Assembly: GCA_964016885.1 (NCBI GenBank) | Contig: OZ024740.1 | Span: 143,468,001 to 143,532,000, forward strand | Source: Eledone cirrhosa | Taxonomy: Eukaryota | DNA: 64,000 nt | Direction of reading: 5' to 3' | Shown here: in pieces, positions 1 to 64,000 of the stretch | How the letters are laid out: each line of letters starts with the position of its first letter | How positions within the stretch are numbered: position 1 is the first letter of the stretch | Translations under genes and position numbers: made by a program | The notes under the pieces: generated by a model | The model's input: the letters and a program-made list of their open reading frames with translations, nothing else | Databases searched by the model: none | Told to the model about the DNA's origin: nothing

Positions 1-735
1 CATTGGTCTCTAGGAAGTGTGCGGTGTAGGAGACCTGGTCCTCTGCCTTGCTGCATTTTTTTCCAGGAATGTGTGAATTTATTCTTTATGTATCAGGTTT
101 TAGCACCAATGAGCAAACAGGTCTCTGCAATTGGTTTTTCTGTAGAAGTTATGGATGTCACCTTCTGTTATCCTGAGTTGGTAGTCAAGTAGAGACAGGG
201 ATCCAGGGCAGTTATGGTTTTCTACGCTGAACTACATGTTATCATCCTTGTTTATGAACATGGTAGATATTCCATTGGCCTCTTCATCAGAGAATGTGAG
301 TAAGAGTACGTCATCTATGTATCTAGTGAAGAAGGTACAGGAGCGACAGGTGTTGAACGTTTGATGTTCTAGCTGGTCATGTAGGTGATGGCTAATAGGC
401 CTGAAAGATTGGATCCCATGGGTAGACTTGTTGTTTGTTTGTAGGTGTGGTGATGAAAGGTGAAGTATGTGTTTTCTACAATACTGATAGGAGGTGGTGA
501 GGCCAAAGTTGTATAGGTCGGAAGAAATGATGCAATCAATCACAAGGTTGACCACTGGGTGAGTGGGTACTGATGTGTAGGAGACAACATTGAGGCTAAA
601 GGTGTATCTGTTAAGTTTAAGTTGACCTGTATTTGTTAGGAAGTTGTCTTTGCCTACAGATATCAGCCTAGACTCTGTTAATGTGGTCTTCAATTTGGGT
701 TGATGTTGTCTATTATTTCCGAAATAATCCATTGT
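1..735 (-). mobile_element. Penelope-like retroelement RT fragment (degenerate)
   Basis: FSLNVVSYTSVP, FFTRYIDDVLLL and downstream LLDYQLRI..FYRK match PLE RT motifs; frameshifted. Confidence 0.7.
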
Positions 736-1039
736 TGCTGTGGTATTCAAATACCAGCTTGTTGTAGATGTCACAAGTGACAATGCAAAATTCTTTCCCT
801 TAATACACAAATTAAGGTACAAAGCAACGTATATATACAAAAATTATGTGTCAGTGTATAAACAGAAACTAAGTACATTTCATAATTTCTTTGTTTGTTT
901 TTTGTTTTTTTTATTTTCAATATATAGATACAATAGAAAATAACTTTTTTCCTGTTTCCACCATTCATCTATGGTTCTTGTGATGTTTTGTGTTCTTCAG
1001 ATTCACTTGTACAAGATATGTAATTCCTGTCATTTTCTC

Positions 1040-1770
1040 TGCTGAAAGATGGGGCAAACAATGCATGCAAAGACAAGGTGAACTCTCTAACTGTTAGAAT
1101 ATTTTATATGAATAGACTACACAAAGTTGTGACAAAGTTCTTTGACATGTCTACTACTGCTGGTCCTGATTGTGGCAAAGCAGAAATAATATATTAAAAA
1201 TTTCAAGATACCATGGGTCAACTGTGTTGGCTTGGGGGTAGACAATTGCTGCATAAACATGGGACAACCTAATTTAGTCATGTCTAGAATTCACAATATA
1301 AACAGTGCTTGATTTTTATTAAGATACCCTTGTCATCTCATACATGACATTGCTTCCTTTCAGTCGAATTTAAAGATGTATGTGGTTTTTGACTTTTGCA
1401 TTGATCTATTTTACTTTTTGGATAAGAGTACAAAATGAAAGGAGGAGTTAGAAGAGTTTTGTTGCTTTTACGATAGAGAATATAGGGGAATTTTAAAGAA
1501 TGTCAACAAGGTGGTTAAGCCTAGAAATGGCAATTAATTGGGTTCTACTTTTTGATGCACTGCAGTTTTTTTCATATCCTGTGATAAGCATCTCAACTTT
1601 ATATGTTTGAAAGCACCCCTTCTAAACTCTCATGTTAAAAATATATTTACTATTCTATCAGGTTGTTCTGCCATCTTTCACCAATTTTAATAAAGACCTT
1701 TCCATTCACCTGCTAGACTGAATTACATTCTTTTTTGGTAGAAACTTTTAAATAAATTTATAAAGTCGAA
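1040..1770 (+). mobile_element. Degenerate hAT-family DNA transposase fragment
   Basis: Manual translation gives WVNCVGLGVDNC, PCHLIH, DLFYFLDKSTK and WLSLE, resembling the hAT CxxH and RW motifs; many stops. Confidence 0.6.
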
Positions 1771-1775
1771 AGCTA

Positions 1776-2610
1776 TCTATCTATATATATAAAACTGAGG
1801 ATGTGTGTGTGTATGTGCATACCCACATAACTTCCACAGTTTGCAACCGACTTTCTTCAAATTTGGAACAAACATGCATTATGTTCCCAGGAGTGTTTTG
1901 GACTCATAAATTTCAAGTTTTTGTCTAATGTGGCCCCTAGATAAATATTAGTTGGTTGCATGAAAACTACACACATACATATACATCTAAAGAGAGAGAG
2001 AGAGAGTGAGATAGGCCGTTATACAGAGAGAGATAAAGATATTCAGATAGAGAGAGAGAATGGCGACGAACGCTGGTTTACACACGCACACACATAAAGA
2101 GAGAGATATCTGTGCGTTCTTGATTGTTCTTCATTCTGTAGAGAAAGAGAGAGAAAGATAGAGAGGGTATGAGAAAAAAGAGAGAGAGGGGTTCAGAAAG
2201 AAAGAAAGATTGTAGGGGGTTGGGGAGGGAAGAAAATGATAGCAGCGTTCAATAACTTTAACTTTTATTTATTTATTTATTCTTTAGAAACTAAAAAAAA
2301 GAATCAATCTGTGGACACAGAAGTAAATATTTTTTTAAATGTTACAACCGAAGGAAACCAGGAAGATAATACTTTCGTTCGTGAAGATGTTCCCTGGCAA
2401 TAAATGGGAAAAAAGCGAGGATAATTATGTCGTTGTGTGGGGTGATGAGAACAATGTCTTGCAAAGACAAAAACACGTTTATGGTTTAAATGGAGACGTT
2501 AGACTTATATTCTATTTAGAATAACTGGATGATTCTCGGCTCCGGAGTTTAAGAATAATGTAAATAAAGTTGTTAAACGGAAATGACAGAGGCTATTAAA
2601 ATAGTAAAAG
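1776..2610 (+). mobile_element. Non-autonomous Helitron-like element (5' end clear, 3' end not seen)
   Basis: A|TCTATCTATATATATAAAA followed by (GT)n. Internal sequence is homologous to 25420-25530 and 46825-46990. Confidence 0.5.
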
Positions 2611-2614
2611 TAAA

Positions 2615-2803
2615 TAATTGTTTTTACTTTTTGGCACAAAGCCAGAAATTATTCCAGTGTATACTGGTACTTTATTTTATCGACCCCGTAAGGATGAAAG
2701 GCAAAGTTAACCTCAGCGGGATTTGAACTCAGACCATAAAGAGCCGTAACCCTTTGTTGCAAAGCATGGCGTCAGGCTCTTTACCGATACTGCCAATCCT
2801 CCG
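2615..2803 (-). mobile_element. tRNA-derived SINE with Deu/Nin-like central domain
   Basis: Reverse complement has A-box TGGCAGTATCGG, B-box GTTCAAATCC, then CTTTGCCTTTCATCCTTACGGGGTCGATAAAATAAAGTACCAG. Several copies occur in the window. Confidence 0.85.
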
Positions 2804-2984
2804 ATTTAGGCCAGTGCATAAATATGCGCTCACGCATACATACGCATCATACATATATATATGCACACACAAATATACTTATATGAGCAGCCAGTTTGAA
2901 CAGAAAAAGATGAGAGAATTCTGGTCAGATATGGCTGGTTTATGCTAGTGTGGAAGATAGACGTTAAACGATGATGATGATGAT

Positions 2985-3222
2985 GATATATATATAATAT
3001 ACTTACATATACACACATATATACATGCACACATACACATATACAGATACACACATACATATACCTACATGTATAGGCCTAAAAACACATATATATATAT
3101 ACACACATACACAAATTCACATATGTACATACATACATATGCATATATACATATAACACATACACATACATATATATATATACATGCATATATACACATA
3201 TTCATATACATACATACACATG
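2985..3222. repeat. (AT/AC)n compound microsatellite
   Basis: Read directly; shorter in copy B. Confidence 0.9.
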
Positions 3223-3409
3223 ACTGCTATTTAATACCCTCTGCTAGTTTTAAGTAGAATATCTTGTTTGAAAGAAGACTATGTAAAAAAATAAAGAAAA
3301 TCATATGAGCTGTATGGATGTCTTTATTGGAATTATAACTCTCCTAAAACACAGAGTGAGTTTCTAGAGAATGCATCTCTTGTTTTCTGACACTTCCATA
3401 TATATAGGT

Positions 3410-4450
3410 GAGCTATGAGGCCCTCTTACCAGCACTTTCCCTTCCACCCACACACGTCAGCCACCCACCCCTGATGCCGCTTGGTGCCCCACACCCCATC
3501 CCCCATCCCTCCAAGCTGACACCTGCTGCACTTGCAGCACCACTAACAAACGAAAGAGGGGCCGGAACTGTTTGGGGTGCGGCTGCTTCCACCACCTCAC
3601 CTGTGTTGGCTTGACTCGTCGAACTTCCAATGCCCTCGCAGCGTGGAGGTGCAGGAGCTGCCCTTCCCCACGACTTCCCAGCCACGGCCGTCTGGCACAC
3701 CACCACATGGGACATGGAGCTTGCCTGACGCCCGAGCCTCGCTGGTCAACATCGCTCGGCTCAGGCGGTTCCGGAAGATCACACTCAGGATCCCGAGAGC
3801 GGCACAGGTGCCGGTAGCTGATGCCCTCGCTTCCTCAATTGAGAGCGCCCTGGACTCCAATCGAGCCAGTGACTGGGAGCGGCTGTTCTATTTCACCCCA
3901 CTTGCCTTCGGCCTCCCCAGCTCTGGCGCTGAATGGGGCGGCCGGTCAACAGCAGCCTTCGTCAAGGCAATATCAAACACCCTGGGCCACCCACTGATCT
4001 CAGACCCATACCCCCACCCGACTCCCACTTGCTCCTTGTGGCTTCTGATGCAGACATCAGGTCCTTCCCAGCTAGCAGCTGTGGAAGTGATGATGGTCTC
4101 CGACCAGGCCACCTCAAGGAGTTGACATCCCCCCTCTCCGCTGAGGCCGGGTGGCGCTCACCAATAGGCTCATCCATGGTGCCCTGGACTCTTACGCCCG
4201 AGGCCTCTTTTTTGGGGCCAGCCTCACCGCTCTCAGGAAGAAAGAGGGTGGCATACGCCCCATTGCTGTGGGCAATGTCTTCCGGAGGCTGGCTGCCAAG
4301 GTGATCTGCAAGTCCGTAACACACAAACTGGGTGTCGGCATGTCCGGTGGCTGTGAGGGGGCCGCTCATGCAACCAGGCAGTTCTTCAACAGCTGCCGCT
4401 TGGAACCGGCATCCAGGGACTCCAGGCACCTCATTGTCAAGCTTGACATG
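3410..4450 (+). mobile_element. CRE-clade (RLE-type) non-LTR retrotransposon RT fragment
   Basis: DGLRPGHLKEL, GASLTALRKKEGGIRPIAVGNVFRRLAAK, GVGMSGGCEGAAHA, VKLDM; GC-rich. Confidence 0.85.
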
Positions 4451-5265
4451 AGGAGAATCTTTGCCGTTGAATGATGATTTTTTGAGTTGTACAGGTTTTA
4501 CTTGTAAAGTATACTTTGTTTGAAGTTTTACATGATAAAAATATAGGTTGATGCTGAAGTAGTTGTGTTTTTTGTTGTTTTCTTAATGTTATATATACAT
4601 ATCACAATGTCCACAATAGCTTATACAGCAAACTATTTCTCACATAATCCATATCCATGGGTTCACTTCTCTGAAGCACAAGCCTCATCAGGGGGTTTTG
4701 TAGAAGACCAGCAGTTACCCATGCATGCAAGTCTACCCTCTATATGATACCAATGTTGTCAAAGGCAGAGGCTGGTTACAGCTTGACACTAGTGTTGTCA
4801 TTTTTCCAGCTAAGTTAACTGGGGCAACATAAAATAAAATGCCTTGTTTGAGGACACTATGCTGTCTGGTTCAGGAATTGAACTAATCCACATTCTTCAC
4901 AAGTTTTAGAAGCGTGTGATAACAAGTCAACTAAACACGGCAAATCTTACTGCCGAATTGTTGATTTGAGAAATGTAATGTATTCAGTTCATTTTCATGT
5001 CGTCTCTACATGTTTCTTGGTCCATTTACCTATCAGTATTTAAATTGTTATTAATCTGTTATATGTTTGTTTAACTTAGAATCTAATCTTTTCAATATTA
5101 TCGATAAATCTGTCGGACCCTCAAAAATAATCTTCTCGCATTTAAACTCCTATTATTTGTTATACGCTCGTTTAACTTTTCAATAATAAATTTGAATCTG
5201 TCAGACCTTTATAAAAATAATCTTCTCGTAAACTTTCCCATTTCTCCCCCCCCCCCCTTCTTTGA

Positions 5266-8128
5266 TAATGTCAAAGGTAAAGATAAATTCACCTCCTGTT
5301 GTCGGGCGAGAATGCAAGAACTCCTCTTTATTTCAGGCACGGATGGCCAAAATAATCCCATCTCCCACACCCCTTCCTGTGCCTCCAACCTATCCCTTCC
5401 ACCCACCCAACGAAATCCAAAACTTCAGAGTTGGTACCATGAATGTAGGCACTTTGAAAGTTTGCTCTAACGAGGTTGTAGAGATGCTTGAACGTAAGGA
5501 AGTTGATGTTTGTTGTGTTCAAGGACTAGATTCATTGTGGGTAAAAAACGATGCTATAAACTTTTCTGGGTGGGGTGGGGTGGTGTAGGAATTATGTTAG
5601 CAGAAAAATGGGTAGATAAGGTAATGCCGTAAATAGAGTGAACGACAGAATAATTAAAATAGGACTAGTCCTAAATAGAAGTACTGTGACAATAATATCT
5701 GCTTATGCATCTCAATCTGGCCTACCTGATGTTATAAAAGACAGATTCTATGAGTCGTTAATGCTCACTACCTCCCAAATAACTGACAGTGACTACATAA
5801 TTATTGGTGGTGACCTTAATGGTCATGTTGGACAACATTGTGACGGTTATGACGGGATCCATGGAGGCTATGGGTTTGGTACTAGAAATGAGGACGGCTT
5901 CAGAATCCTGGAATTCTGTGATGCTAATAACCTAACTATCTGTAACACAAACTTCAAAAAATGAGACAATCACTTGATCACTTATAGATCAGGGGAACAC
6001 ACCAGTCAGATAGATTATATCCTTACTAGAAGACGTGACAGAGTGTCTGTTGTAAATACTAAATCCCTCCCCCATGAAGAATGCACCTCCCAAGTGCACC
6101 GCCTCATAGTTAGCAACCTCATACCCAAGACTAGACATACTCGACAACAGAGGAGAAGAATATGGAAGTTGAAGGACCCCACAGCCTGTAACAAATTTAA
6201 AAGTATATTACTTGATGCTTTTGACAGTAAGAAAGAGCAATTAGAGACGTACAGCATCTGGAATGGTGGGACACACTATGGTCACCTGGATAGTAAACCA
6301 AGTAATACAGAATGGAATCATACCAAATGACTGGCGTAGCAGCATCATCATTAACTGCCACAAGGGTAAAGGAGATGCTCTAGATAGGGGAAATTATAGA
6401 GGCATTAAGTTAGTTGACCAGGTCATGAAGGTCACAGAAAGAGTTATAGTGCAACTAATCAGAGAGCGAATTGATCTAGATGAAATGCAGTTTGGGTTTG
6501 TGTCAGGTAAAAGTACCACACACTCTTTTCATTGTACGACAACTACAGGAGAAGTACCTAGATAAAAGTAAACCCCTCTACTTAGCTTTTATTGACTTGG
6601 AGAAAGCCTTTGACAGAGTCTCCCCACCCCCCTTCATTATCTGGTGGACTCTTAGAAAACTTGGTGTTGATGAATGGCTTGTGATAGCTATACAAGCCAT
6701 GTATAGAGGAACAGTTAGCAAGGTTAGAATTAACAAAAAATATAGTGAAGAATTTAGCATCAAAGTTGGTGTTCATCAAGGCTCTGTCCTTAGCCCCCTC
6801 TTATTTATTATTGCCCTTCAAGCTATAACAGAGGAGTTCAAGACCGGCTGCCCATGGGAACTTCTATATGCAGATGATCTAACTCTCATAGCTGAATCGA
6901 TGGCTAAACTAGAGAAGAAATTCCAAACATGAAAGCATGGCCTAGAATCAAAAGGCCTTAAAGTTAACTTGTCTAAGACTAAAGTTCTAGTATGTAGAAA
7001 GGAAAATAGGACACAGGTGCCCTCTGGGAAATGGCCATGCTCAGTGTGTAGGAAAGGAGAAGGCAGAAATTCCATTTTATGTCCCAAATGCAAACTATGG
7101 GTACATAAAAGATGTAGTGGGATCACAGGTAAATTATCTAAGAACGTAGATTTTATATGTGGTCGATGCTCAGGTTCAATAAGTAGCAAGTGCCCACAGG
7201 ATACTAGCTCCTTCTATTGCCCAGATGGTTCTATAGAAATAGTGGACACTTTCCGTTGCCTGGGTGACAAAATCAGCAGTGGTGGAGGGTGCTCTGAAAG
7301 TACAGTAGCCAGAGTCAGAACGGGATGGAAAAAGTTCAGAGAGCTTATACCATTATTGGCCACTAAAGGTTTCTCTCTAAAAATGAAAGGTAGATTGTAA
7401 GATGCCTGTATGCAAACAGCAATGTCTAATAGTAATATACGCGAATGGCAAAAGATAAATGAACTAAGTGAGAAATTAGGAATAAGAGGGATCAGATGCT
7501 GTTTACTTCAGAGAAGACTATGTTGGTATGGTCACGTGATGCACATGAAAGACGACAGCTGTATTAAAAAGTGCAGGGCGATCAAAATTGATGGAAGTTA
7601 CAGAGTAGGTAGACCCAGAAAAACCTGGGATGATTTGATAAATTCCGACCTTACACACTTACACCTCTCTAAGACAATGTTACTGGACCGAGATCTTTGT
7701 GCATAGTGAAACCTTCAGTCAGTAGGCACCGCTTAACCAACGCCTTGCCTATGTGCATAGTGAAACCTACAGTCAGTAGGCACCGCTTAACCAAATATAC
7801 ACCCTATCATACTATCCCCTACTCCACCCTCCCACTCCCGCCAACACCACCCTTTCTCTGTAAAGTTATGTTGGTACCACAACATCCACTCCAAAATAAA
7901 TGAGGTTGTGTAGGTCTCATGATAAAAAAACACAGTCCACGCTGTAATGTGGCCGTGTAGGTAACACAGTAAAAAGCTCCCAGTCCACACTGTAAATGTG
8001 GTTGGTGTTAGGAAGGGCATCCAGCCGTAGCAAACCTGCCAGCCAGTCCTATACGAGCAAGACACGGTCACTCGACCGTCTAAACCCATGCTAGCATGGA
8101 AGATAGACATTAAACAATGATGATGATG
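5266..8128 (+). mobile_element. RTE-clade LINE, degenerate with internal deletions (APE endonuclease, RT, PHD-like finger, (ATG)n tail)
   Basis: GTMNVGTL, GGDLNGHVG, SQIDYIL, DLEKAFDRV, GVHQGSVLSP, LLYADDL, CSVC..CPKCKLWVHKRC..CGRC; tail ATGATGATG. Confidence 0.93.
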
Positions 8129-8525
8129 ACATTTCTTGTATTCAAAGACAAACAGAAGAGTAAAGACTTCTGGTTATGAACATCAGAAAGAGTAAAGAAC
8201 TTGGAGAAATTAATGGATGTTCATTGATTTCATCTGTCCAGTAAAATCGACTGCAATAATATACAAACGGTGTAAAATATAAACTTCAGGTATCAACATT
8301 TACATATGACTCATTTTTATTTGAGTATTGACAATAAATCATCATCATCATTTAATGTCTATTTTCCATGCTAACATGGGTTAGACGAGTTGTCCCATTT
8401 GAAGCAAGTCAGATAAGATGTTACAGTGTTTCTCTCATTGATAATTCGACAATCACAAAAATAATGTTTAAAAAAAAATCTTGTATTTTGAACTAAAATA
8501 TTTTGCTTTTTCATTTTTTCAGATA

Positions 8526-8565
8526 ATGAAGATTCTACCACTACTCTATTTGCTGGCAATGACTT
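8526..8565 (+). CDS. Coding exon 1 (signal peptide MKILPLLYLLAMT)
   Basis: Acceptor ttttcattttttcAG at 8521-8522, ATG at 8526, donor T|GTAAGT at 8566 (phase 1). The acceptor implies an upstream non-coding exon. Confidence 0.85.
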
Positions 8566-11500
8566 GTAAGTGATTTATCACCATCACCATCAACATCATC
8601 ATCACCGTTTTACATCTGCTTTTCTATGCTTGCATGGGTTGGAAGTGTCTTTTCTAGCACAACCTCCTTCTACTCATTGTGGTACTTCGTCATCTCTGGT
8701 ACCTTCAGCAATTTCAGATGAGCACTCAAAACCTCTGCCCTGATCTGCCTTGGACGCTTAATGCAGCTTTCTTCCACTGGCATTTGTGCATCCAAACGGA
8801 AGACGGGTAAATTCGTATATTCGGCCACAGGCTTCGAATGCAGTCAACTTAAAGTCGGAAGATTTGATGGGTATTTGGTGATAAGCTGCCTTTAGATCTA
8901 TTTTCGAGAAATATTTGTGTTTTGAAATTTTGTTGAGTAGGTCTTCGATTATGGCTTTAGGGTATGAATCTAATGGTGTGTAACGATTTATAGTGCCTGA
9001 GTAGTCTATGACAAGCCTTTTTTTGTTTTCTTGATCTATTACGAAACACTGCGCTCTCCATGGGCTTCTGCTCTGTTGAATTATTCCAGCTTTAAGCATT
9101 CTGTCGATTTCCGTTTTAATGAATTGCTGATCTTTATTGTATTTTCGAGGAGGTATAGATAATGGTTTTAATTTTGTAGTATCGATTCCAGGCATTAAAT
9201 CATATTCTTCACAATTCAGAGTTTGCATTGACATACATATCGTGACTGCTCTCATGTCCCCTGCATATTTTATTGTTAAAGACTTATGCCTTTTAAGTAT
9301 ATCAAGAGCCATAACTACTGGAGCAAAGAGTTTGTCAACCACCATTAGATCGATGTGGTATTCTCGGCCCTCCCATTCTAATGTTGTTTCAAATGTACCT
9401 CGTATTATGAGTTTACTGTTGTCGGCTAAAATTACACTCTTATTCTTAGTTTTCTTGAATTTACTTTGCCATTTCGACAAGTGGTTCATGTCAATGAAAG
9501 ACTTGTCTGAGCCTGTGTCAAGTAAACCTTCTGTTTTATGTGAATTGACATAAATTGTTAAAAAGTTTGTATTATGATTCACGGAAGCAAGTTTATAGCA
9601 GGCAGCAAGATTACTGCCATCATTGGAGCCCTCGTTATTATTCAAGACTGCTGCGTGTTTTATCTTCTTTAGTACCTTCTTATTTTCAACAAAACATACT
9701 GTTGCCCAGTGGCCTTTCTTGTGGCAGAAATTGCAAGTTGAATTTTTTGCAGGGCACTCTGATTTTTGGTGACATGTACCACCACACCAGAAACATTTTA
9801 ATGAAGAAGCAGCGAATACGGGTTGTGACGGCGGTTGTATTGTTGTTGTTGACAGATTTTGTGCGTCTTCTATTGCCAGTTCTAATGTGAGAGCGGTTTG
9901 GAATGTTTTATCTAGATTTTTGAAACTCCTACCTGTATCTTGAATACATCACTAAACTCATTACCTGCTCTCATTTTACTGACAGCACCTTTGTACATAG
10001 CTTGCATGGCTCTCATAACCCACTCATCTACACCCAGCTTCCTTAAGGACCACCAGATAACAGATCAATGTATAATTCTCTCTACAAGTATTAAATGTGT
10101 TATTATTCTAACAAAAGTAGAAATCCAGTTTTTCTTATCTGTAATTCAGCAACAAGCCTTTTAAGACCATTTTCCTTGCTATATTAAGGGTTATCCCTTC
10201 ATGGCATCCTTTTTGAGGCAATATTTTACAGCCACATTCCCTTCCTGTTGAAACCTCTTTTAGTCACCTCTTACAACACACATGGTTATGTAAAATCTGA
10301 AAATATATTTTCATCTTTTATAGATATATCAATGGTCAATGCAAAGCTTAACATTGAAGCAAATGGTAATTGTATTATAAAAATCTTTGATTTTAAAACC
10401 AGATGCTATCTTTTCTACTCTGCTTTCTGCTTCTTTGTCATAGTTAATAATGTTTAGTCACTAAATATATTTCCTCCTTTGAATGGGCAAAATTTCATCT
10501 TCAGAGCCCAAAAGACAATAATGATTATAAATATGATTGTGATTATAATATTGATTGTAGTAATACAAACTGTTATCTTAAAATATCAATTTGACAAAAC
10601 TGTAGAAAGTAACTAAAGACTATTTAGTAAAAACAAATGTATATATATATATATATATATCAGCAGCAGCAGCAGCACTTAACATCTATTTTCCCTACTT
10701 TTGAGGATTGAATAGGTCGTTATAGAATAAGTCAGTACTTAATTGAAGCCAATAGCCTCTCAACAAGTCAGGTATCACATCTCACTTACATACATTCCTG
10801 AAATGTACATGTAACAGATGCATTTTATCATGGCACCAGCTCTAGAGGGGTTTTTGTACCCTTGATAAAACTGAAGAGGCTTCACAACTCTTTGTTGGCC
10901 CAGTTTTCTATGACTGAATACCCTTCCTATCACCAACCACCTTATAGAATGTACTGGCTGGTTTTCTCATGTTGCCAACACTAGAGAGGTTTTCATGCCC
11001 TTAACACAACTGAAGCGTCCTCTTGACCCTTTTTTGGTGTGGTTTTTCCAGCTGGACACCTCTCCTATCACTAACCACCTTACAAAGTGTACTGACTGCA
11101 TCTTTTGTGGCACCAGCACTAGGGCAGTAGTCACGGTGTAGTCCTACAGATGGAAGCTCTTCCTAACACTAACCACTTTGATGGGGGAGGTAAGAAGGAT
11201 GATGTATATATGTGCACACACATACATATTACATATATGAATACATGTTCAGAATTCTGTACATTTTTGGAGACACTTGTGATCTGTACATAAGTTGGTA
11301 TAACATGTGAGTAATGTAGCATGTCATCAGGGTCATGGTCCTTGAAAGACTTTCAGTTGTCTCCAATGGTAACATAACACAAGATGATTAAAACTTAAGG
11401 ATCTGCTGCAATATCTTCCGTCTTCTTCATCATTATGTGAGTTAATTTAACACCTGCTTTATCACTATTGAAGATTGAAGACAATGAAACGCATTTAGTC

Positions 11501-14192
11501 TGAATCCTCACCCTCAACTTTGCAATCTTTAAAGACCCTACTAGGAGGACAAACCTTCTGATGACATCACTGTCAAGGTCTGATGAACATGCAAGCTTCT
11601 CCACCACATCATAGTAGATCTCTCATTCAATTTCTCATTAGTTCTGATAATCTTTATTATATATTTTTACTTTTAATTTCCATTATAAATATATCAAAGC
11701 TGATAAAAACTTAAACTTAAATCAATAAATTTAATATATCTATTTCAGGAACAATTTGGTTAGGGGAAGAAATAACTCTTAAAACTCCAATCAGTGCTAA
11801 TACTGCGGCTATTACATGGAAAAGTGAAGGAAAGAATATTGCATGTGACAAAAGTTGCGATGGGAATGAAGACTACAAAATTACTAGGGGAAATGGTTTA
11901 TCTACCCTTTGGATAAGAAATGTTTCTTGGCAATATCGTACATGGACAGTTATTGAAAATGATTTGGAAACTAATGACTTCACTATGGATATAAATGGTA
12001 AGGAAATAATTTCTGATGATAATAATCATGGAGCAAGTATTTTATGGTGTTAAATCAAAGTCAACATTTGTATTTTAATGATTTATTTTCTATCTTGAAT
12101 TGTAATATTTCTGTAATATATAATAATGTGGGATAGTTAACTAAATGAACTGGTTAGATTAACCCCTATGTCCTTGTTCTAATATCTTGACCACATTTCC
12201 AATAATTAGGTGTCTATATTACCACTTAATTGTTATATGGTTGACAATCTTTCGGTATCTTCTAATATCTTAATCACATTCCCAGTGGTCACTTATCTAA
12301 TGTTATATAACCCCTATAAAATAAGCTAATTTGTCAGACTGCCATATTTGTGTTAAAAATGTTTGTTTTTTGAAATTCAGATGTTATGTTGATTTTATTT
12401 TTTTTTTTTTTTTATATAGAATTTTAAATAATAACATTCTTATTCCTTTTCTATCTCTAAGAATGATTCCACATTCCTTAGTACAGATGTATTGGAAGGT
12501 TTTATCTCTGAATGGTTTAGAAATCATATAAACACAAATTTAGCAGTATGTCTTATTTTATATAGTTTTCACAGAATTTTTAATCTCATAACTTGTTTGG
12601 TTTTAATATTGCAGTGAACTTTGTATATTTTCTGTTAGCCATGTGATGTTATAGACTATTTCCAACTCTCCTTATTTTCTGATAACTTTTTCTTGGAGTT
12701 GAAAACTGTGAAAACAACCACACATTAAGAAGACCCGCTTAACATTTGCAGAGATAGGAGAAATCAATCTAAATATACCTACAGACTAACAAAGAACAGT
12801 CTGTCTGAGGAACAATTTGTCCTCTATATATGATTATATACACTTACAGACTGATGAGGATTCTTTGTTACTAAAATATACATAAAACAACTTTATACTG
12901 ATATTATTCTTGTTTTTTTTCTTTCCTTTTTTCAATTCTTGAAATGACAAAGAAATTGGTCTTATTTTTCATTGATCAGAACCTTTTTCCAAATTCTCAC
13001 TGCAAACAAATCTATTGTAACCAAATCTTGACAATACAGTGTGGGAATAAAGAATCTGTAAATTAAAAAAATAGCTTGTGGTAGCAATAATAATAAAGGC
13101 TTACCTTGCTTCCAGAATTCACTTAGAGGAATTTTTAATAGCAGCTCTTTCATGCTAAACAGCTTAAAACACCACACTTTTCTGTGAGTCTCACACTCAC
13201 ATACACACGCAACCATACTTTGAAAAAAATTCTATGTTGAAAGAGGATTGGAGTTCTGTTCCTTCACTAACCTGGCACTATTTCCCTCTCATACTTCTGG
13301 CTCTTAACCCACAATACTACATACATTTTAAAAGACGGTATCATAGAAGCAACTAATTCATTATCGCTGGCAGGGCCTATGAGAGGGGGTCCAACTAGTA
13401 CTTTGTTCCGGGGGCCCAAGACCTAAGAAGGTCCCACAGCAACCATGCAACATCCATTTTGAGAATTTGCCTGCTTCAGAGCAAAATTTCTCCTGGAAGC
13501 CCTGATCGCAGGCACAGTTTTTTCTTTGGCAATTTCAGTATTGAAAAGTCTTCTAGTAGATGTTTCTCAAATGAGATGGAGGTGGGTGCAAATATTCTAA
13601 AATGCTGCTATTCGCACCAGAAATCAACATTCTCTGTTAACTGTTCTCTCTCATTTTCTGCATCATCATCATTGAACAGCCATTCTCCCTGGTAGCAAGT
13701 GTTGGACAGGTTATTACAGAATGAGTCAGTGCTCAAGTAGAGCTACTGACCTCTCAGATGGGTCAGAGGCCCACATCGTGCTTACATATATTTCCATACT
13801 CTATAGAGTGCACTTTATTGTGGCGCCAACATTAGAAAGGTTGTCATGACTTTGACACTGCTGAAGAAGCCTCTCAACCCTTTATTTGACCAGTTTTCTA
13901 TGACTGAATACCTTTCCTATCACCAACCACCTTTCAAAATGTACTGAGTTTGTTTAATTAAGTCACCAACACTAGAGAGGTTGTACCTTTGACGTAACGG
14001 AAGAATTCTTTTGACTCTTTTTAACACGGTTTCTATGACAGGATTCTCTTCCTATTGCCAACCAAGTCACAGGTTGTACTGGGCGCATTTTTTGTAGCAC
14101 CAACATTAAGGAGGTTATTGGTAATTGAGTTAACTGAAGATCCCTCTCTACTCTATGGGAGGGGATGTTAAAAAGGATGGTAAGTATAATGC

Positions 14193-46506: not shown

Positions 46507-46604
<98 letters not shown>

Positions 46605-46669
46605 CACACATATATATATGTATATATATAAAAAATATATAAAAATATATATATATATATATATATATA
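46477..46669. repeat. (TA)n microsatellite
   Basis: Read directly. Confidence 0.95.
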
Positions 46670-55084: not shown

Positions 55085-56090
55085 GAAACGATGGTTTATT
55101 TATAACTGCCAGAAATGGTGGAAGATTGGCATTATATGTGGACTACTATATGTGTGTACATTTTTATGTCAAATATAGGTTTCCTCGTAGTGAAGGGCTG
55201 GAGAGAGCTAACTGTGTATCTAGTCCCTCCTTGCAGATCACCATGGTTATTTTTTTGCTGAAGTGTAGTAACTTCAGAAAGCAGGTGTTGGAGGAGGTCT
55301 TACATTTCCAGCATTTTGGACCCCGAAGACGACTTTTGATGAATGTTGGATATTCATTGGTCTCTAGGAAATGTGCGGTGTAGGGGACCTGGTCCTCTGC
55401 CTTGCTGCATTTTTTCCAGGAATGTGTGAATTTATTCCTTATGTATCAGGTTTTAGCACCAATGAGCAAACAGGTCTCTGCAATTGGTTTTTCTGTAGAA
55501 GTTATGGATGTCACCTTCTGTTATCCTGAGTTGGTAGTCAAGTAGAGACAGGGATCCAGGGCAGTTATGGTTTTCTACGCTGAACTACATGTTATCATCC
55601 TTGTTTATGAACATGGTAGATATTCCATTGGCCTCTTCATCAGAGAATGTGAGTAAGAGTACGTCATCTATGTATCTAGTGAAGAAGGTACAGGAGCGAC
55701 AGGTGTTGAACGTTTGATGTTCTAGCTGGTCATGTAGGTGATGGCTAATAGGCCTGAAAGATTGGATCCCATGGGTAGACTTGTTGTTTGTTTGTAGGTG
55801 TGGTGATGGAAGGTGAAGTATGTGTTTTCTACAATGACTGATAGGAGGTGGTGAGGCCAAAGTTGTATAGGTCGGAAGAAATGATGCAATCAGTCACAAG
55901 GTTGACCACTGGGTGAGTGGGTACTGATGTGTAGGAGACAACATTGAGGCTAAAGGTGTATCTGTTAAGTTTAAGTTGACCTGTATTTGTTAGGAAGTTG
56001 TCTTTGCCTACAGATATCAGCCTAGACTCTGTTAATGTGGTCTTCAATTTGGGTTGATGTTGTCTATTATTTCCGAAATAATCCATTGTT
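55085..56090 (-). mobile_element. Penelope-like RT fragment (copy B)
   Basis: Duplicate of 1-735, extended on the left; RYIDD. Confidence 0.7.
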
Positions 56091-56394
56091 GCTGTGGTAT
56101 TCAAATACCAGCTTGTTGTAGATGTCACAAGTGACAATGCAAAATTCTTTCCCTTAAATCACAAATTAAGGTACAAAGCAACGTATATATACAAAAATTA
56201 TGTGTCAGTGTATAAACAGAAACTAAGTACATTTCATAATTTCTTTGTTTGTTTTTTTGTTTTTTTTATTTTCAACATATAGATACAATAGAAAATAACT
56301 TTCTTCCTGTTTCCACCATTCATCTATGGTTCTTGTGATGTTTTGTGTTCTTCAGATTCACTTGTACAAGATATGTAATTCCTGTCATTTTCTC

Positions 56395-57125
56395 TGCTGA
56401 AAGATGGGGCAAACAATGCATGCAAAGACAAGGTGAACTCTCTAACTGTTAGAATATTTTATATGAATAGACTACACAAAGTTGTGACAAAGTTCTTTGA
56501 CATGTCTACTACTGCTGGTCCTGATTGTGGCAAAGCAGAAATAATATATTAAAAATTTCAAGATACCATGGGTCAACTGTGTTGGCTTGGGGGTAGACAA
56601 TTGCTGCATAAACATGGGACAACCTAATTTAGTCATGTCTAGAATTCACAATATAAACAGTGCTTTAATTTTTATTAAGATACCCTTGTCATCTCATACA
56701 TGACATTGCTTCCTTTCAGTCAAATTTAAAGATGTATGTGGTTTTTGACTTTTGCATTGATCTATTTTACTTTTTGGATAAGAGTACAAAATGAAAGGAG
56801 GAGTTAGAAGAGTTTTGTTGCTTTTACGATAGAGAATATAGGGGAATTTTAAAGAATGTCAACAAGGTGGTTAAGCCTAGAAATGGCAATTAATTGGGTT
56901 CTACTTTTTGATGCACTGCAGTTTTTTTCATATCCTGTGATAAGCATCTCAACTTTATATGTTTGAAAGCACCCCTTCTAAACTCTCATGTTAAAAATAT
57001 ATTTACTATTCTATCAGGTTGTTCTGCCATCTTTCACCAATTTTAATAAAGACCTTTCCATTCACCTGCTAGACTGAATTACATTCTTTTTTGCTAGAAA
57101 CTTTTAAGTAAATTTATAAAGTTGA
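56395..57125 (+). mobile_element. hAT transposase remnant (copy B)
   Basis: Duplicate of 1040-1770. Confidence 0.6.
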
Positions 57126-57131
57126 AAGCTA

Positions 57132-57935
57132 TCTATCTATATATATAAAACTGAGGATGTGTGTGTGTATGTGCATACCCACATAACTTCCACAGTTTGC
57201 AACCGACTTTCTTCAAATTTGGAACAAACATGCATTATGTTCCCAGGAGTGTTTTGGACTCATAAAATTTCAAGTTTTTGACTAATGTGGCCCCTAGATA
57301 AATATTAGTTGGTTGCATGAAAACTACACACATACATATACATCTAAAGAGAGAGAGAGAGAGTGAGATAGGCCGTTATACAGAGAGAGATAAAGATATT
57401 CAGATAGAGAGAGAGAATGGCGACGAACGCTGGTTTACACACGCACACACATATAAAGAGAGAGAGATCTGTGCGTTCTTGATTGTTCTTCATTCTGTAG
57501 AGAAAGAGAGAGAGGGGTTCAGAAAGAAAGAAAGATTGTAGGGGGTTGGGGAGGGAAGAAAATGATAGCAGCGTTCAATAACTTTAACTTTTATTTATTT
57601 ATTTATTCTTTAGAAACTAAAAAAAAAGAATCAATCTGTGGACACAGAAGTAAATATTTTTTTAAATGTTACAACCGAAGGAAACCAGGAAGATAATACT
57701 TTCGTTCGTGAAGATGTTCCCTGGCAATAAATGGGAAAAAAGCGAGGATAATTATGTCGTTGTGTGGGGTGATGAGAACAATGTCTTGCAAAGACAAAAA
57801 CACGTTTATGGTTTAAATGGAGACGTTAGACTTATATTCTATTTAGAATAACTGGATGATTCTCGGCTCCGGAGTTTAAGAATAATGTAAATAAAGTTGT
57901 TAAACGGAAATGACAGAGGTTATTAAAATAGTAAA
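57132..57935 (+). mobile_element. Helitron-like element (copy B)
   Basis: Duplicate of 1776-2610. Confidence 0.5.
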
Positions 57936-57941
57936 AGTAAA

Positions 57942-58130
57942 TAATTGTTTTTACTTTTTGGCACAAAGCCAGAAATTATTCCAGTGTATACTGGTACTTT
58001 ATTTTATCGACCCCGTAAGGATGAAAGGCAAAGTTAACCTCAGCGGGATTTGAACTCAGACCATAAAGAGCCGTAACCCTTTGCTGCAAAGCATGGCGTC
58101 AGGCTCTTTACCGATACTGCCAATCCTCCG
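57942..58130 (-). mobile_element. Deu/Nin-type SINE (copy B)
   Basis: Duplicate of 2615-2803. Confidence 0.85.
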
Positions 58131-58641
58131 ATTTAGGCCAGTGCATAAATATGCGCTGACGCATACATACGCATCATACATATATATATACACACACAAA
58201 TATACTTATATGAGCAGCCAGTTTGAACAGAAAAAGATGAGAGAATTCTGGTCAGATATGGCTGGTTTATGCTAGTGTGGAAGATAGACGTTAAACGATG
58301 ATGATGATATATATATATAATATACTTACATATACACACATATATACATGCACACATACACATATACAGATACACACATACATATACCTACATGTATAGG
58401 CCTAAAAACACATATATATATATATACACATATTCATATACATACATACACATGACTGCTATTTAATACCCTCTGCTAGTTTTAAGTAGAATATCTTGTT
58501 TGAAAGAAGACTATGTAAAAAAATGAAGAAAATCATATGAGCTGTATGGATGTCTTTATTGGAATTATAACTCTCCTAAAACACAGAGTGAGTTTCTAGA
58601 GAATGCATCTCTTGTTTTCTGACACTTCCATATATATAGGT

Positions 58642-59705
58642 GAGCTATGAGGCCCTCTTACCAGCACTTTCCCTTCCACCCACACACGTGGGCCACCCAC
58701 CCTTGATGCCGCTTGGTGCCCCACACCCCATCCCCCATCCCTCCAAGCTGACACCTGCTGCATTTGCAGCACCACTAACAAACGAAAGAGGGGCCGGAAC
58801 TGTTTGGGGTGCGGCTGCTTCCACCACCTCACCTGTGTTGGCTTGACTCGTCGAACTTCCAATGCCCTCGCAGCGTGGAGGTGCAGGAGCTGCCCTTCCC
58901 CACGACTTCCCAGCCACGGCCGTCTGGCACACCACCACATGGGACATGGAGCTTGCCTGACGCCCGAGCCTCGCTGGTCAACTTCCCTCGGATCAGGCGG
59001 TTCCGGAAGATCACACTCAGGATCCCGAGAGCGGCACAGGTGCCGGTAGCTGATGCCCTCGCTTCCTCAATTGAGAGCGCCCTGGACTCCAATCGAGCCA
59101 GTGACTGGGAACGGCTGTTCTATTTCACCCCACTTGCCTTCGGCCTCCCCAGCTCTGGCGCTGAATGGGGCGGCCGGTCAACAGCAGCCTTCGTCAAGGC
59201 AATATCAAACACCCTGGGCCACCCACTGATCTCAGACCCATACCCCCACCCGACTCCCACTTGCTCCTTGTGGCTTCTGATGCAGACATCAGGTCCTTCC
59301 CAGCTAGCAGCTGTGGAAGTGAGGATGGTCTCCGACCAGGCCACCTCAAGGAGTTCACATCCCCCCTCTCCGCTGAGGCCGGGTGCCGCCTTCTGAGTGC
59401 AATTGTGGCGCTCACCAATAGGCTCATCCATGGTGCCCTGGACTCTTACGCCCGAGGCCTCTTTTTTGGGGCCAGCCTCACCGCTCTCAGGAAGAAAGAG
59501 GGTGGCATACGCCCCATTGCTGTGGGCAATGTCTTCCGGAGGCTGGCTGCCAAGGTGATCTGCAAGTCCGTAACACACAAACTGGGTGTCGGCATGTCCG
59601 GTGGCTGTGAGGGGGCCGCTCATGCAACCAGGCAGTTCTTCAACAGCTGCCGCTTGGAACCGGCATCCAGGGACTCCAGGCACCTCATTGTCAAGCTTGA
59701 CATGA
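58642..59705 (+). mobile_element. CRE-clade RT fragment (copy B)
   Basis: Duplicate of 3410-4450, retaining 22 bp lost in copy A. Confidence 0.85.
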
Positions 59706-61274
59706 GGAGAATCTTTGCCGTTGAATGATGATTTTTTGAGTTGTACAGGTTTTACTTGTAAAGTATACTTTGTTTGAAGTTTTACATGATAAAAATATAG
59801 GTTGATGCTGAAGTAGTTGTGTTTTTTGTTGTTTTCTTAATGTTATATATACATATCACAATGTCCACAATAGCTTATACAGCAAACTATTTCTCACATA
59901 ATCCATATCCATAATTCTAAAGTTTAAAAAGCTAGAATAAAAAGGTGCATTATATATGAATACATACAGTAATGTACAAAAGTAGCTAAAAAGTATAAAA
60001 CACTTATTATTATGCTAATTGTTTTTCAGCATTTCTGCTAACCTTTTCAAGCATTTACTACCAATTTTTAGCATGCCTGGAAGGTTTTTTCCAGCATTTT
60101 CATTCAAGCTGGTTGACATCTTATGTATGTGTGTGTGTGTTCTGAATGATTTATTATTAAGGATAAATTCCAACACTGTTTTAGAAAGGTGTTATAATTA
60201 AATGCAGTCTTGTCAAAAATCATGTCACAGGATTTCCTATAAATAGCTTCAACACTGTGATCATTTCGGTACAGTATACCCCAAAAGATTCCATGTTGTT
60301 TGTGCAAACCCCAGTATCAGGGTTTACGAAATAATGCAAATGGTTAACCGTTTCAAAGATCAGCCATGTTTACCTGTGAGTGTCCAAGCTATAATTATCT
60401 GGCCAACTTTGGTTATGTAGCAAAATTATCCAGATGAGAGTTTAGAGTCTTCACTGTTTTGTCAGGTTTGTTATATTGGCCTATCAGAACATAGTACCCT
60501 GTAAGCAATTTTTTGGCTATTTAAGAGAATGCACAGCTGCCTTGCCACCTTTCCCTTCACTTGTATCCATGAGGAAGCTATCTCTTGCTTAATTTCTCCT
60601 TCAACAGAATAACTTTTACTGGTTCGAAAACATGTGACAAAGGGAAAGGAAGAGAGCCACCCACCCATGGGTTCACTTCTCTGAAGCACAAGCCTCAGCA
60701 GGGGGTTTTGTAGAAGACCAGCAGTTACCCATGCATGCAAGTCTACCCTCTATATGATACCAATGTTGTCAAAGGCAGAGGCTGGTTACAGCTTGACACT
60801 AGTGTTGTCATTTTTTCCAGCTAAGTTAACTGGGGCAACATAAAATAAAATGCCTTGTTTGAGGACACTATGCTGTCTGGTTCAGGAATTGAACTAATCC
60901 ACATTCTTCACAAGTTTTAGAAGCGTGTGATAACAAGTCAACTAAACACGGCAAATCTTACTGCCGAATTGTTGATTTGAGAAATGTAATGTGTTCAGTT
61001 CATTTTCATGTCGTCTCTACATGTTTCTTGGTCCATTTACCTATCAGTATTTAAACTGTTATTAATCTGTTATATGTTTGTATCACTTAGAATATAATCT
61101 TTTCAATATTATCGATAAATCTGTCGGACCCTCAAAAATAATCTTCTCGTATTTAAACTCCTATTATTTGTTATACGCTCGTTTAACTTTTCAATAATAA
61201 ATTTGAATCTGTCAGACCTTTATAAAAATAATCTTCTCGTAAACTTTCCCATTTCTCCCCCCCCCCCTTCTTTG

Positions 61275-63940
61275 ACAATGTCAAAGATAAAGATAAATTC
61301 ACCTCCTGTTGTCGGGCGAGAATGCAAGAACTCCTCTTTATTTCAGGCACGGATGGCCAAAATAATCCCATCTCCCACACCCCTTCCTGTGCCTCCAACC
61401 TATCCCTTCCACCCACCCAACGAAATCCAAAACTTCAGAGTTGGTACCATGAATGTAGACACTTTGAAAGTTTGCTCTAACGAGGTTGTAGAGATGCTTG
61501 AACGTAAGGAAGTTGATGTTTGTTGTGTTCAAGGACTAGATTCATTGTGGGTAAAAAACGATGCTATAAACTTTTCTGGGTGGGGTGGGGTGGTGTAGGA
61601 ATTATGTTAGCAGAAAAATGGGTAGATAAGGTAATTGCCGTAAATAGAGTGAACGACAGAATAATTAAAATAAGACTAGTTCTAAATAGAAGTACTGTGA
61701 CAATAATATCCGCTTATGCATCCCAATCTGGCCTACCTGACGTTATAAAAGACAGATTCTATGAGTCGCTAATGCTCACTACCTCCCAAATAACCGACAG
61801 TGACTACATAATTATTGGTGGTGACCTTAATGGTCATGTTGGACAACATTCTGACGGTTATGACGGAATCGATGGAGGCTATGGGTTTGGTACTAGAAAT
61901 GAGGACGGCTTCAGAATCCTGGAATTCTGTGACGCTAATAACCTAACTATCTGTAACACAAACTTCAAAAAATGAGACAATCACTTGATCACTTATAGAT
62001 CAGGGGAACACACCAGTCAGATAGATTATATCCTTACTAGAAGACGTGACAGAGTGTCTGTTGTAAATACTAAATCCCTCCCCCGTGAAGAATGCACCTC
62101 CCAACACTGCCTCATAGTTAGCAACCTCATACCCAAAACTAGACATACTCGACAACAGAGGAGAAGAATATGAAAGTTGAAGGACCCCACAGCCTGTAAC
62201 AAATTTAAAAGTATATTACTTGATGCTTTTGACAGTAAGAAAGAGCAATTAGAGACGTACAGCATCTGGAATGGTGGGACACACTATGGTCACCTGGATA
62301 GTAAACCAAGTAATACAGAATGGAATCATACCAAATGACTGGCGTAGCAGCATCATCATTAACTGCTACAAGGGTAAAGGAGATGCTCTAGATAGGGGAA
62401 ATTATAGAGGCATTAAGTTAGTTGACCAGGTCATGAAGGTCACAGAAAGAGTTATAGTGCAACTAATCACAGAGCGAATTGATCTAGATGAAATGCAGTT
62501 TGGGTTTGTGTCAGGTAAAAGTACCACATACTCTTTTCCTTGTATGGCAACTACAGGAGAAGTACCTAGATAAAAGTAAACCCCTCTACTTAGCTTTTAT
62601 TGACTTGGAGAAAGCCTTTGACAGAGTCTCCCCACCCCCCTCCATTATCTGGTGGACTCTTAGAAAACTTGGTGTAGATGAATGGCTTGTGATAGCTATA
62701 CAAGCCATGTATAGAGGAACAGTCAGCAACGTTAGAATTAACAATAAATATAGTGAAGAATTTAGCATCAAAGTTGGTGTTCATCAAGGCTCTGTCTTTA
62801 GCCCCCTCTTATTTATTATTGCCCTTCAAGCTATAACAGAGGAGTTCAAGACCGGCTGCCCGTGGGAACTTCTATACGCAGATGATCTAACTCTCATAGC
62901 TGAATCGATGGCTGAACTAGAGAAGAAATTCCAAACATGGAAGCATGGCCTAGAATCAAAAGGCCTTAAAGTTAACTTGTCTAAGACTAAAGTTCTAGTA
63001 TGTAGAAAGGAAAATAGGGCACAGGTGCCCTCTGGGAAATGGCCATGCTCAGTGTGTAGGAAAGGAGAAGGCAGAAATTTCAAATGTCAGAAATTTCAGA
63101 AATTTCAAATGTCCCAAATGCAAACTATGGGTACATAAAAGATGTAGTGGGATCACAGGTAAACTATCTAAGAAGGTAGATTTTATATGTGGTCGATGCT
63201 CAGGTTCAATAAGTAGCAAGTGCCCACAGGATACTAGCTCCTTCTATTGCCCAGATGGTTCTATAGAAATTGTGGACACTTTCCGTTGCCTGGGTGACAA
63301 AATCAGCAGTGGTGGAGGGTGCTCTGAAAGTACAGTAGCCAGAGTCAGAACGGGATGGAAAAAGTTCAGAGAGCTTATACCATTATTGGCCACTAAAGGT
63401 TTCTCTCTAAAAATGAAAGGTAGATTGTAAGATGCCTGTATACAAACAGCAATGTCTAATAGTAATATACGCGAATGGCAAAAGATAAATGAACTGGACC
63501 GAGATCTTTGTGCATAGTGAAACCTTCAGTCAGTAGGCACCGCTTAACCAACACCTTGCCTATGTGCATAGTGAAACCTACAGTCAGTAGGCACCGCTTA
63601 ACCAAATATACACCCCATCCTACTACCCCCGACTCCACCCTCCCACTCCTGCCAACACTACCCTTTCTCTGTAAAGTTATGTTGGTACCACAACATCCAC
63701 TCCAAAATAAATGAGGTTGTGTAGGTGTCATGATAAAAAAACACAGTCCACGCTGTAATGTGGCCGTGTAGGTAACACAGTAAAAAACTCCCAGTCCACA
63801 CTGTAAATGTGGTTGGTGTTAGGAAGGGCATCCAGCCGTAGCAAACCTGCCAGCCAGTCCTATACGAGCAAGACATGGTCACCCGACCGTCTAAACCCAT
63901 GCTAGCGTGGAAGATAGACGTTAAACAATGATGATGATGA
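61275..63940 (+). mobile_element. RTE LINE (copy B)
   Basis: Duplicate of 5266-8128; LLYADDL and (ATG)n tail. Confidence 0.93.
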
Positions 63941-64000
63941 CATTTCTTGTATTCAAAGACAAACAGAAGAGTAAAGACTTCTGGTTATGAACATCAGAAA

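Follow-up and report, generated by a model that had tools for sequence, protein, structure and literature searches.

A tandemly arrayed and retrocopied gene for a predicted immunoglobulin-like surface protein in the octopod Eledone cirrhosa, with signs of diversifying selection on its ectodomain

A nine-unit array at the locus

The window analyzed here, a 64,000-bp stretch of the genome of the octopod Eledone cirrhosa (positions 143,468,001 to 143,532,000 of contig OZ024740.1, below C1, in the 3.0-Gb assembly GCA_964016885.1), carries a gene for a predicted immunoglobulin (Ig)-like surface protein that is likely held by a glycosylphosphatidylinositol (GPI) anchor. An initial annotation, made from the letters of the window, had proposed that this gene belongs to a young tandem cluster. 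We examined 584 kb around the window and found it to be unit 4 (c4) of nine head-to-tail units that extend over ~0.5 Mb, from C1 ~143.293 to 143.797 Mb, which confirms the proposal on a larger scale than it had suggested. The nine units are contiguous and lie in the same direction, and the 584 kb contain no N.

The proposal had started from the recurrence of the 8.2 kb upstream of coding exon 1, which self-comparison of the window confirms. The first 8,189 bp are repeated at the end of the window in four BLAST pieces of 95.6 to 97.6% identity at offsets of 55.2 to 56.0 kb (Table 1), and the two copies are 98.8% identical in aligned columns (94 mismatches in 7,837), far above the 65 to 90% at which dispersed transposon remnants match one another in the same comparison. 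The private deletions ascribed to each copy could be located, three on either side: copy A lacks 756, 22, and 22 bp (59,909 to 60,664, 59,383 to 59,404, and 63,083 to 63,104 of copy B), and copy B lacks 219, 91, and 33 bp (7,463 to 7,681, 3,097 to 3,187, and 2,144 to 2,176 of copy A). The homology does not end before the second exon 1: an ATG predicted at ~64,340 lies at 64,335 (C1:143,532,335), 5 bases off. What had been called exon 1 is the first coding exon, with a splice acceptor in front and a likely untranslated leader exon farther upstream. Because the likely donor of that leader exon sits 12 to 15 kb before the ATG in all nine units, the recurring 8.2 kb belong to intron 1.

A 601-bp probe over exon 3 matched 15 loci in the genome, nine on C1 (99 to 100% identity, spaced 48 to 61 kb apart) and six on a second chromosome, C2 (68 to 75%); three protein probes returned the identical set. 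The 55.4 kb given earlier for the tandem unit is correct for the unit in the window, whereas units across the array span 47.7 to 62.0 kb. They are 0.07 to 0.83% apart in substitutions, the closest pairs being c1 and c5 (0.07%), c2 and c6 (0.18%), c4 and c9 (0.34%), and c3 and c8 (0.36%). With c7 joining c1 and c5, the grouping suggests that some of the units were duplicated together, as one block, within the array.

The last unit stops inside a (TA)n tract, at the equivalent of window position 46,521, and sequence like that of the left flank resumes at 47,100; a duplication breakpoint is therefore placed near this tract, at ~46.5 to 46.7 kb, and the edge of the window was rejected as a unit border. 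A second type of junction precedes c4 and c9, and the array may have grown by unequal crossing-over from the two junction types. A 420-bp repeat is present in about two copies at internal junctions (window 47,100 to 47,700) and in ten or more copies, some inverted, at the left flank of the array (C1:143,287,000 to 143,293,300).

Table 1. Features of the window (positions within the 64,000 bp)
Feature	Position	Strand	Basis or remark
Recurring segment, copy A	1..8189	+	Lies in intron 1 of gene copy c4 (3' part); transposon remnants for the most part
First coding exon (signal peptide, ATG at 8,526)	8526..8565	+	Splice acceptor in front; an RNA-like contig (loose end at 10,324) joins it to the next exon
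Coding exon 2 (completes signal peptide, opens domain 1)	10324..10365	+	Spliced in run X4 (GT..AG)
Coding exon 3, Ig-like domain 1 (V-like; has the Trp but not the canonical B and F cysteines)	11749..11997	+	
Coding exon 4, Ig-like domain 2, first half	14274..14371	+	
Coding exon 5, domain 2, second half; most variable exon (13 variants in 166 bp over nine copies)	20065..20230	+	
Last coding exon (Thr-rich stalk, GPI-signal-like hydrophobic end, stop)	20685..20896	+	
3' untranslated region common to retrocopies (6-8% diverged)	20897..21732	+	
C2H2 zinc-finger remnant 1, broken (in-frame stop in first linker, degenerate fingers)	29009..29700	-	6/9 units
C2H2 zinc-finger remnant 2, broken (frameshifts and stops)	31640..32130	-	6/9 units
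(TA)n tract at putative duplication breakpoint	46477..46669	.	Array end and resumption of left flank
Long interspersed nuclear element, 3.1 kb, endonuclease and reverse transcriptase, broken	47982..51078	+	Upstream of copy B leader donor; same insertion in 6/9
Likely 3' end of leader exon of copy B (GT donor after 51,096)	51079..51096	+	Similarity to retrocopy leaders; 9/9 units
Recurring segment, copy B	55355..64000	+	Intron 1 of next copy, c5; ATG at 64,335

Gene structure and transcripts

The gene has six coding exons for 254 to 268 residues. A signal peptide precedes two domains of ~90 residues, and a Thr-rich stalk leads from these to a hydrophobic end. In all nine copies the frames are open and the introns are of the GT-AG type, and the copies encode nine different proteins with eight different ectodomains. 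The stalk contains a 21-bp repeat whose number varies among copies.

Spliced joints at four of the five coding introns, and a loose end that matches the first coding exon, were found in sequencing run X4, which is not on record as RNA and was classed as RNA-like from these joints. Its depth is ~500 to 1,850 on exons and 5 to 15 in long intron contigs. An alternative acceptor at 20,811, joined from 20,230, drops the stalk in frame (X4 depth of 480, compared to 559 for the full form); the stalkless form begins just before the C-terminal small-residue site. The untranslated leader exon is likely from its similarity to the leaders of the retrocopies described below.

About 20 bp upstream of the leader donor, six of the nine copies carry the 3.1-kb long interspersed nuclear element (LINE). 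The other three (c1, c4, and c9) have instead a 783-bp palindromic element farther upstream, which is complete in c1 and cut down to half in c4 and c9; the complete element (C1:143,293,663 to 143,294,445) has an 8-bp target duplication. The copies thereby fall into two promoter states. Four alleles that only c9 has are present in the main X4 contigs, and six alleles that characterize c2, c3, c6, and c8 are all missing from them, which hints that the LINE-free copies may be the main expressed ones; X4 comes from a sample other than that of the assembly, and its contigs drop rare variants. Adenosine-to-inosine editing was rejected as the source of the A-to-G changes checked in X4, since the same changes exist in genomic copies.

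Copy number

Eight long contigs of the DNA-like run X1 lie on the gene at depths of 51 to 73, and three exact-match contigs in the flank have depths of 9 to 12 in X1 and 7 to 9 in runs X2 and X3. More than two intact copies at above single-copy depth are what a real tandem gene array should give, and the multicopy status of the gene is secure. After correction for words common to the units, the depth per assembled unit is 7.4, compared to a flank depth of 11.0 in X1 or ~9 in the three runs pooled. The resulting ratio of 0.68 or ~0.82 is rough, since the flank baseline consists of three contigs in ~2 kb (most of the rest of the flank is repeats) and contig depth is not a copy number. A ratio of 0.5 is expected for haplotype doubling and 1.0 for nine copies on both homologues; the half depth that had been named as the sign of a false duplication is not seen, but neither is full depth. 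The data support ~6 to 7 copies per haploid genome, and nine copies on both homologues are not secure; a copy number that differs between the homologues, or a partly false duplication, could account for the shortfall. In two runs of restriction-site-associated DNA sequencing (X5 and X6), the exons were covered at a depth near 1, too low for copy number.

The pairing of c1 with c5, c2 with c6, c3 with c8, and c4 with c9, together with the lowered depth per unit, would fit a copy number (not an array) that is in part an artifact of assembly, in which haplotypes of four and five copies were placed in tandem or c5, c6, and c7 are allelic duplicates. We consider this rather unlikely. The observed ratio exceeds the 0.5 of pure haplotype doubling, c4 and c5 are not separated by any flank sequence, and no two of the nine units are identical over a stretch longer than 7.0 kb, within the span of long reads; this last figure and the different promoter types of c1 and c5 also make a simple chimeric join less likely. 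In the worst case, there would still be four or more units that differ in structure.

A second cluster formed by retrocopies

Four of the six C2 loci (C2:173,847,280 to 173,877,147) are intronless open copies in tandem 7.5-kb units. They encode 241 to 251 residues from a shared ATG, and their proteins are 47 to 50% identical to that of the window. Across the units of this retro-array, the coding kilobase is 89 to 90% identical and the flanks are 94 to 98% identical. The copies run uninterrupted across the exon borders deduced for the C1 gene and share with it 804 to 832 aligned bases of the 3' untranslated region (UTR) at 6 to 8% divergence. An intronless coding sequence joined at the exon borders of the parent, with leader and 3' UTR and on another chromosome, identifies them as processed retrocopies, although neither a poly(A) tail nor a target site duplication was identified for them. 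Two further processed copies, at C2:357,995,987 and C2:72,291,500 to 72,291,900, are broken by stops; one of these broken copies starts at the same leader motif as the retro-array. The family thus comprises 15 loci with 13 intact genes, nine in the array and four in the retro-array, and it is fed by two duplication routes, segmental units and retrocopies.

Protein fold, anchor, and homologues

An AlphaFold2 model was built for the ectodomain of a retrocopy, standing in for the array protein to which it is 47 to 50% identical. The model (13-row alignment; predicted local distance difference test score of 83.9) is all beta and consists of two beta-sandwiches. Comparison with Ig tandem structures gave Foldseek E values of ~1e-8 and VIA Z scores up to 13.8, the best matches being butyrophilin, Neph1/Rst, CD200R, PD-L1, and nectin, tied at Z 13 to 14 with 8 to 18% identity. 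The ectodomain is predicted to be a V+C tandem of the Ig superfamily, as the Ig-like nature claimed at the outset would require. In a wider circle of families (B7/butyrophilin, nectin, CD200R, CD2/CD48/CD58, and IgLON), the tandem V+C ectodomain is matched at Z 11 to 14 with a root mean square deviation of 3 to 4.5 over ~160 to 179 residues. Because identity is 8 to 18% and many families are tied, the fold gives neither family membership nor function.

Domain 1 lacks the canonical V-set pin of Cys(B), Trp(C), and Cys(F): in the octopod rows of the alignment the tryptophan is kept and both cysteines are absent, whereas the cuttlefish rows keep the canonical cysteines. The Pfam I-set match of the exon 3 domain (E 0.016) falls under the cutoff, and Pfam assigned no family to any of the four retrocopy proteins. 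The six profile matches in the PDB include weak ones to GPI-anchored neurotrimin (E 0.002) and CD2. The C terminus, read from the sequence, has a small-residue site, a spacer, a hydrophobic end, and no cytoplasmic tail, and this tail makes a GPI anchor likely; a tailless membrane span is possible.

When 1.84 billion representatives were searched with HMMER, there were 18 matches, 16 of which are uncharacterized proteins of Octopus sinensis, O. bimaculoides, O. vulgaris, Argonauta hians, and Sepia pharaonis; the others are a Logan record that clusters with Sepia and an unnamed record. No homologue outside coleoid cephalopods was found among the 18 (one being unnamed), in line with the cephalopod family that had been anticipated. 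Word-indexed protein searches yielded none among 16 candidates for exon 3 and none among 89 for a retrocopy, and a profile gave only four proteins. The true homologues include O. bimaculoides LOC106876057, LOC106876058, and LOC106868859, O. sinensis LOC115225115 and LOC115232395, Argonauta GAB1602345.1, and Sepia CAE1289077.1. They are 25 to 34% identical (E 1e-25 to 8e-4) and have the cysteine and tryptophan pattern in common; none is named by function. In a midpoint-rooted tree of 26 rows, including eight of the 13 intact E. cirrhosa copies, a starred clade unites the proteins of Octopus and Argonauta and leaves the E. cirrhosa copies outside, from which it follows that the E. cirrhosa expansions are its own.

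The C termini of the relatives range from GPI-like ends to membrane spans. In O. sinensis LOC115232395, a membrane span is combined with a tail that bears two SIYNMM tyrosine motifs, which we take to be similar to the immunoreceptor tyrosine-based inhibitory motif (ITIM); membrane-spanning members with tyrosine motifs also occur in paired-receptor families. Other relatives carry two to four tandem repeats of domain 1.

Selection and recombination

Across the nine array copies, the ectodomain has 29 nonsynonymous and three synonymous variants. The nonsynonymous variants (29 of 427 sites) exceed those in introns 2 to 6 (82 of 10,615) by 8.8-fold (P 1e-16), and those in intron 1 (284 of 11,043), a baseline inflated by misaligned repeats, by 2.6-fold (P 6e-6). 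Over introns 2 to 6, the excess is 6.7-fold in domain 1 and 10.3-fold in domain 2. Among the four retrocopies, 50 nonsynonymous and four synonymous ectodomain changes (P 0.006) fall mostly in domain 1, which lies above the flank in all six pairs; domain 2 does so in two of the six. The expectation that an excess of nonsynonymous divergence (dN) would be focused on domain 1 therefore holds for the retrocopies; in the C1 array the ectodomain excess extends to both domains and is larger in domain 2.

Between the two clusters, dN is 0.405 and synonymous divergence (dS) is 0.191. Pairwise GY94 analysis covered six pairs, five between clusters and one within the retrocopies. The between-cluster ectodomain omega (dN/dS) is 1.77 to 2.33 (P 0.007 to 0.064, four of the five below 0.05), while the signal peptide and tail have an omega of 0.09 to 0.20. 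Mismatch at second codon positions is 25 to 28%, compared to 6 to 8% in the 3' UTR (P ~1e-12, four of four pairs). The hydrophobic core of the family is largely spared by the variable residues (3 of 42, versus 55 of 138; P 2e-5), and some ectodomain variants gain or lose N-glycan sequons. The hot spots of the two clusters overlap no more than by chance (six shared, P 0.41). Since ectodomain dN surpasses dS or the neutral divergence, the family has the signature of positive selection.

Recombination among the copies amounts to at least 19 events, with failure of the four-gamete test at 858 of 4,278 site pairs. The c1 and c5 units differ at 61 sites in ~59 kb, seven of which lie in the 166-bp exon 5 and all seven of which change an amino acid.

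These data bear on the alternative that neutral segmental amplification of transposon-rich DNA carried the gene along by chance. The units are mostly transposon remnant and the zinc-finger (ZNF) sequences within them are dead, as this alternative would have it. On the other hand, all nine array copies and all four retro-array copies are intact, the signal peptide and tail are conserved, and the ectodomain evolves above the neutral rate in two independent clusters; neutral amplification is already disfavored, and we regard it as extremely improbable. We judge it very probable that the array is genuine and under positive selection.

Several observations weigh against this reading and against the favored function given below. 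If nine copies were present on both homologues, the depth should be higher than it is (0.68 to 0.82 of the expectation). At the six diagnostic sites, the RNA-like contigs, which drop rare variants, have no allele of the c2/c3/c6/c8 type, so expression need not extend to every copy. When the nine copies are taken by themselves, the 29 and three changes set against synonymous sites do not give a significant dN/dS (P 0.076), and the one within-retrocopy pair has an omega of 1.56 with a P of 0.44. Ectodomain synonymous sites are themselves above introns (3.4-fold, P 0.06), ectodomain dS is 0.19 versus ~0.07 in the 3' UTR, and flanks that conversion may have homogenized more than exons may inflate the fold figures. 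As conversion may homogenize flanks and ectodomain dS exceeds UTR divergence, the omega values are the conservative measure. Gamete recognition and allorecognition proteins give the same selection signal, a point that concerns function and is taken up below.

Comparison with known recognition systems

CEACAMs likewise have a cysteine-less N-terminal V domain, and some members are GPI linked. The vertebrate CEACAMs are, like the octopod family, clustered Ig superfamily surface proteins, and PMC8860441 reports that their ectodomain is under selection and that conversion takes place between paralogues. They differ in that whole 55-kb units are duplicated in the E. cirrhosa array and domain 2 evolves as fast as domain 1. 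No CEACAM is present among the 18 HMMER matches or the six PDB profile matches, and CEACAM clusters scored only 0.89 in an Atlas comparison, with no sequence relationship shown.

The Hydractinia Alr proteins offer an invertebrate parallel, as a lineage-specific Ig cluster with a V domain that lacks the canonical cysteines (accessible part of 10.1101/2022.03.04.482883). According to the same source, an Fn3-like fold and a membrane span are also part of Alr proteins, and their tails often carry the immunoreceptor tyrosine-based activation motif or ITIM. The octopod protein is unlike them in that the tryptophan is kept, and its two Ig domains lead into a short Thr stalk and then a hydrophobic terminus in place of the Alr combination of Fn3-like segment, membrane span, and cytoplasmic tail. 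The array also resembles the protocadherin, C2H2-ZNF, and S-crystallin arrays of coleoids in being made of same-direction tandem duplications of full genes, as far as the text of PMC9068888 describes them, but those are multimegabase arrays of tens to hundreds of genes, unlike nine copies <1% apart.

On its sequence, the gene appears to behave like a diversified Ig cluster of the CEACAM/Alr type while being a member of neither family, and it appears undescribed. No diversified Ig recognition family in cephalopods is described in the searchable literature, a scope that leaves aside closed-access papers and most supplements. "Immunoglobulin" does not occur in the main text of PMC9068888, whose Supplementary Table 4 holds further unknown squid arrays that may bear on novelty; "octopus," "cephalopod," and "squid" do not occur in the text available of the review of invertebrate Ig proteins PMC11999971; and the accessible portions of PMC13428168 and PMC11703226 have nothing on this family. 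None of 12 LOC identifiers of homologues occurs in searchable paper text, and none of six homologue identifiers occurs in three supplement files of PMC9712504. Work on cephalopod gene clusters has so far centered on protocadherins, ZNFs, and crystallins.

Possible functions

The reading that we favor, at somewhat less than an even chance, is that a microbe or parasite binds the array protein and that the animal gains from displaying several versions of it. In a CEACAM-like arms race, the ectodomain would diversify against a fast-changing partner, and conversion would swap exon-sized tracts among the array copies. As its putative lipid anchor gives no signaling of its own, the protein could act as an adhesion target or decoy, like GPI-linked CEACAMs. 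More broadly, and with slightly lower probability, this coleoid-specific Ig family may fill in cephalopods the place that CEACAM/Alr-type recognition systems have elsewhere. In E. cirrhosa it would then have diversified along two parallel routes (55-kb segmental duplication and a tandem array of retrogenes), with exon-sized conversion, selection on different domains in each cluster, and receptors with inhibitory motifs in Octopus. If true, this would give a molecular handle on how octopuses tell apart self, kin, or microbes.

Recognition of self or kin, by like-with-like cell binding as in Hydractinia Alr1/Alr2, is an unlikely alternative to a pathogen-driven role; here the variants of each animal would together spell out its identity, for instance on skin or suckers. 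Adhesion proteins (nectin, Neph1, and Rst) are among the best fold matches, the changes sit at exposed positions, and the clustered V-like domain without the canonical cysteine pair, set on a second Ig domain, recalls Alr as far as the available text of 10.1101/2022.03.04.482883 goes. The octopod protein nevertheless has no Fn3-like segment or cytoplasmic tail, and its membrane-proximal domain 2 is under equally strong selection.

A whole-ectodomain omega near 2 would also suit a sperm, egg, or spermatophore surface protein under sexual selection. Such values are typical of molluscan fertilization proteins. Germ line expression would explain the retrocopies, as at least two separate processed insertions plus the retro-array require germ line or early-embryo transcripts. 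The Octopus relatives, however, vary in architecture, with up to four domain 1 repeats and signaling-like tails, and so look more like a receptor family; we think gamete or reproductive tract recognition improbable.

The neural or sensory role that the initial annotation had also raised found no support in the present analysis, and a wiring or sensory code like that of clustered protocadherins seems very unlikely. The weak match to neurotrimin and the fold matches to Rst, Neph1, SYG-1, and sDscam would agree with it, as would the tandem arrays of brain genes in coleoid genomes mentioned in the accessible text of PMC9068888. Against it, ~50% amino acid divergence over ~7% neutral divergence would be far too fast for wiring molecules, the family is small (15 loci), and its copies are very young.

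Whichever partner is involved, the family is a clean case of one selected family fed by two duplication routes. With 13 intact genes, a strong selection signal, a predicted fold, and homologues in two laboratory species, O. bimaculoides and O. vulgaris, it makes cephalopod immune or self recognition directly testable.

Passengers and other elements

Most of each array unit is transposon remnant. The ZNF passengers that had been assigned to the unit are present as such, but both are broken remnants and both are missing from units 1, 5, and 7. Neither has the open frame and intact finger array of a functional C2H2-ZNF gene, and relatives of ~80% identity occur at many places on other contigs. 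They are hitchhikers; a role as coselected partners of the Ig-like gene was rejected, the remnants being broken and absent from three of the nine units.

The intron after the first coding exon contains, at window 8,758 to 9,948 on the minus strand, a truncated protease/reverse transcriptase fragment similar to that of long-terminal-repeat retrotransposons, and a 2-kb degenerate satellite with a unit of ~50 bp lies at 36,567 to 38,646, inside the array unit. Open reading frames of at least 150 codons in 11 stretches of the flanks were, as judged by eye, transposon-like or of low complexity. One element, at C1:143,812,500 to 143,814,100, reaches a depth of ~300 in three DNA-like runs, corresponding to roughly 30 copies that are ~97 to 98% alike, and has a 252-codon transposase-like frame.

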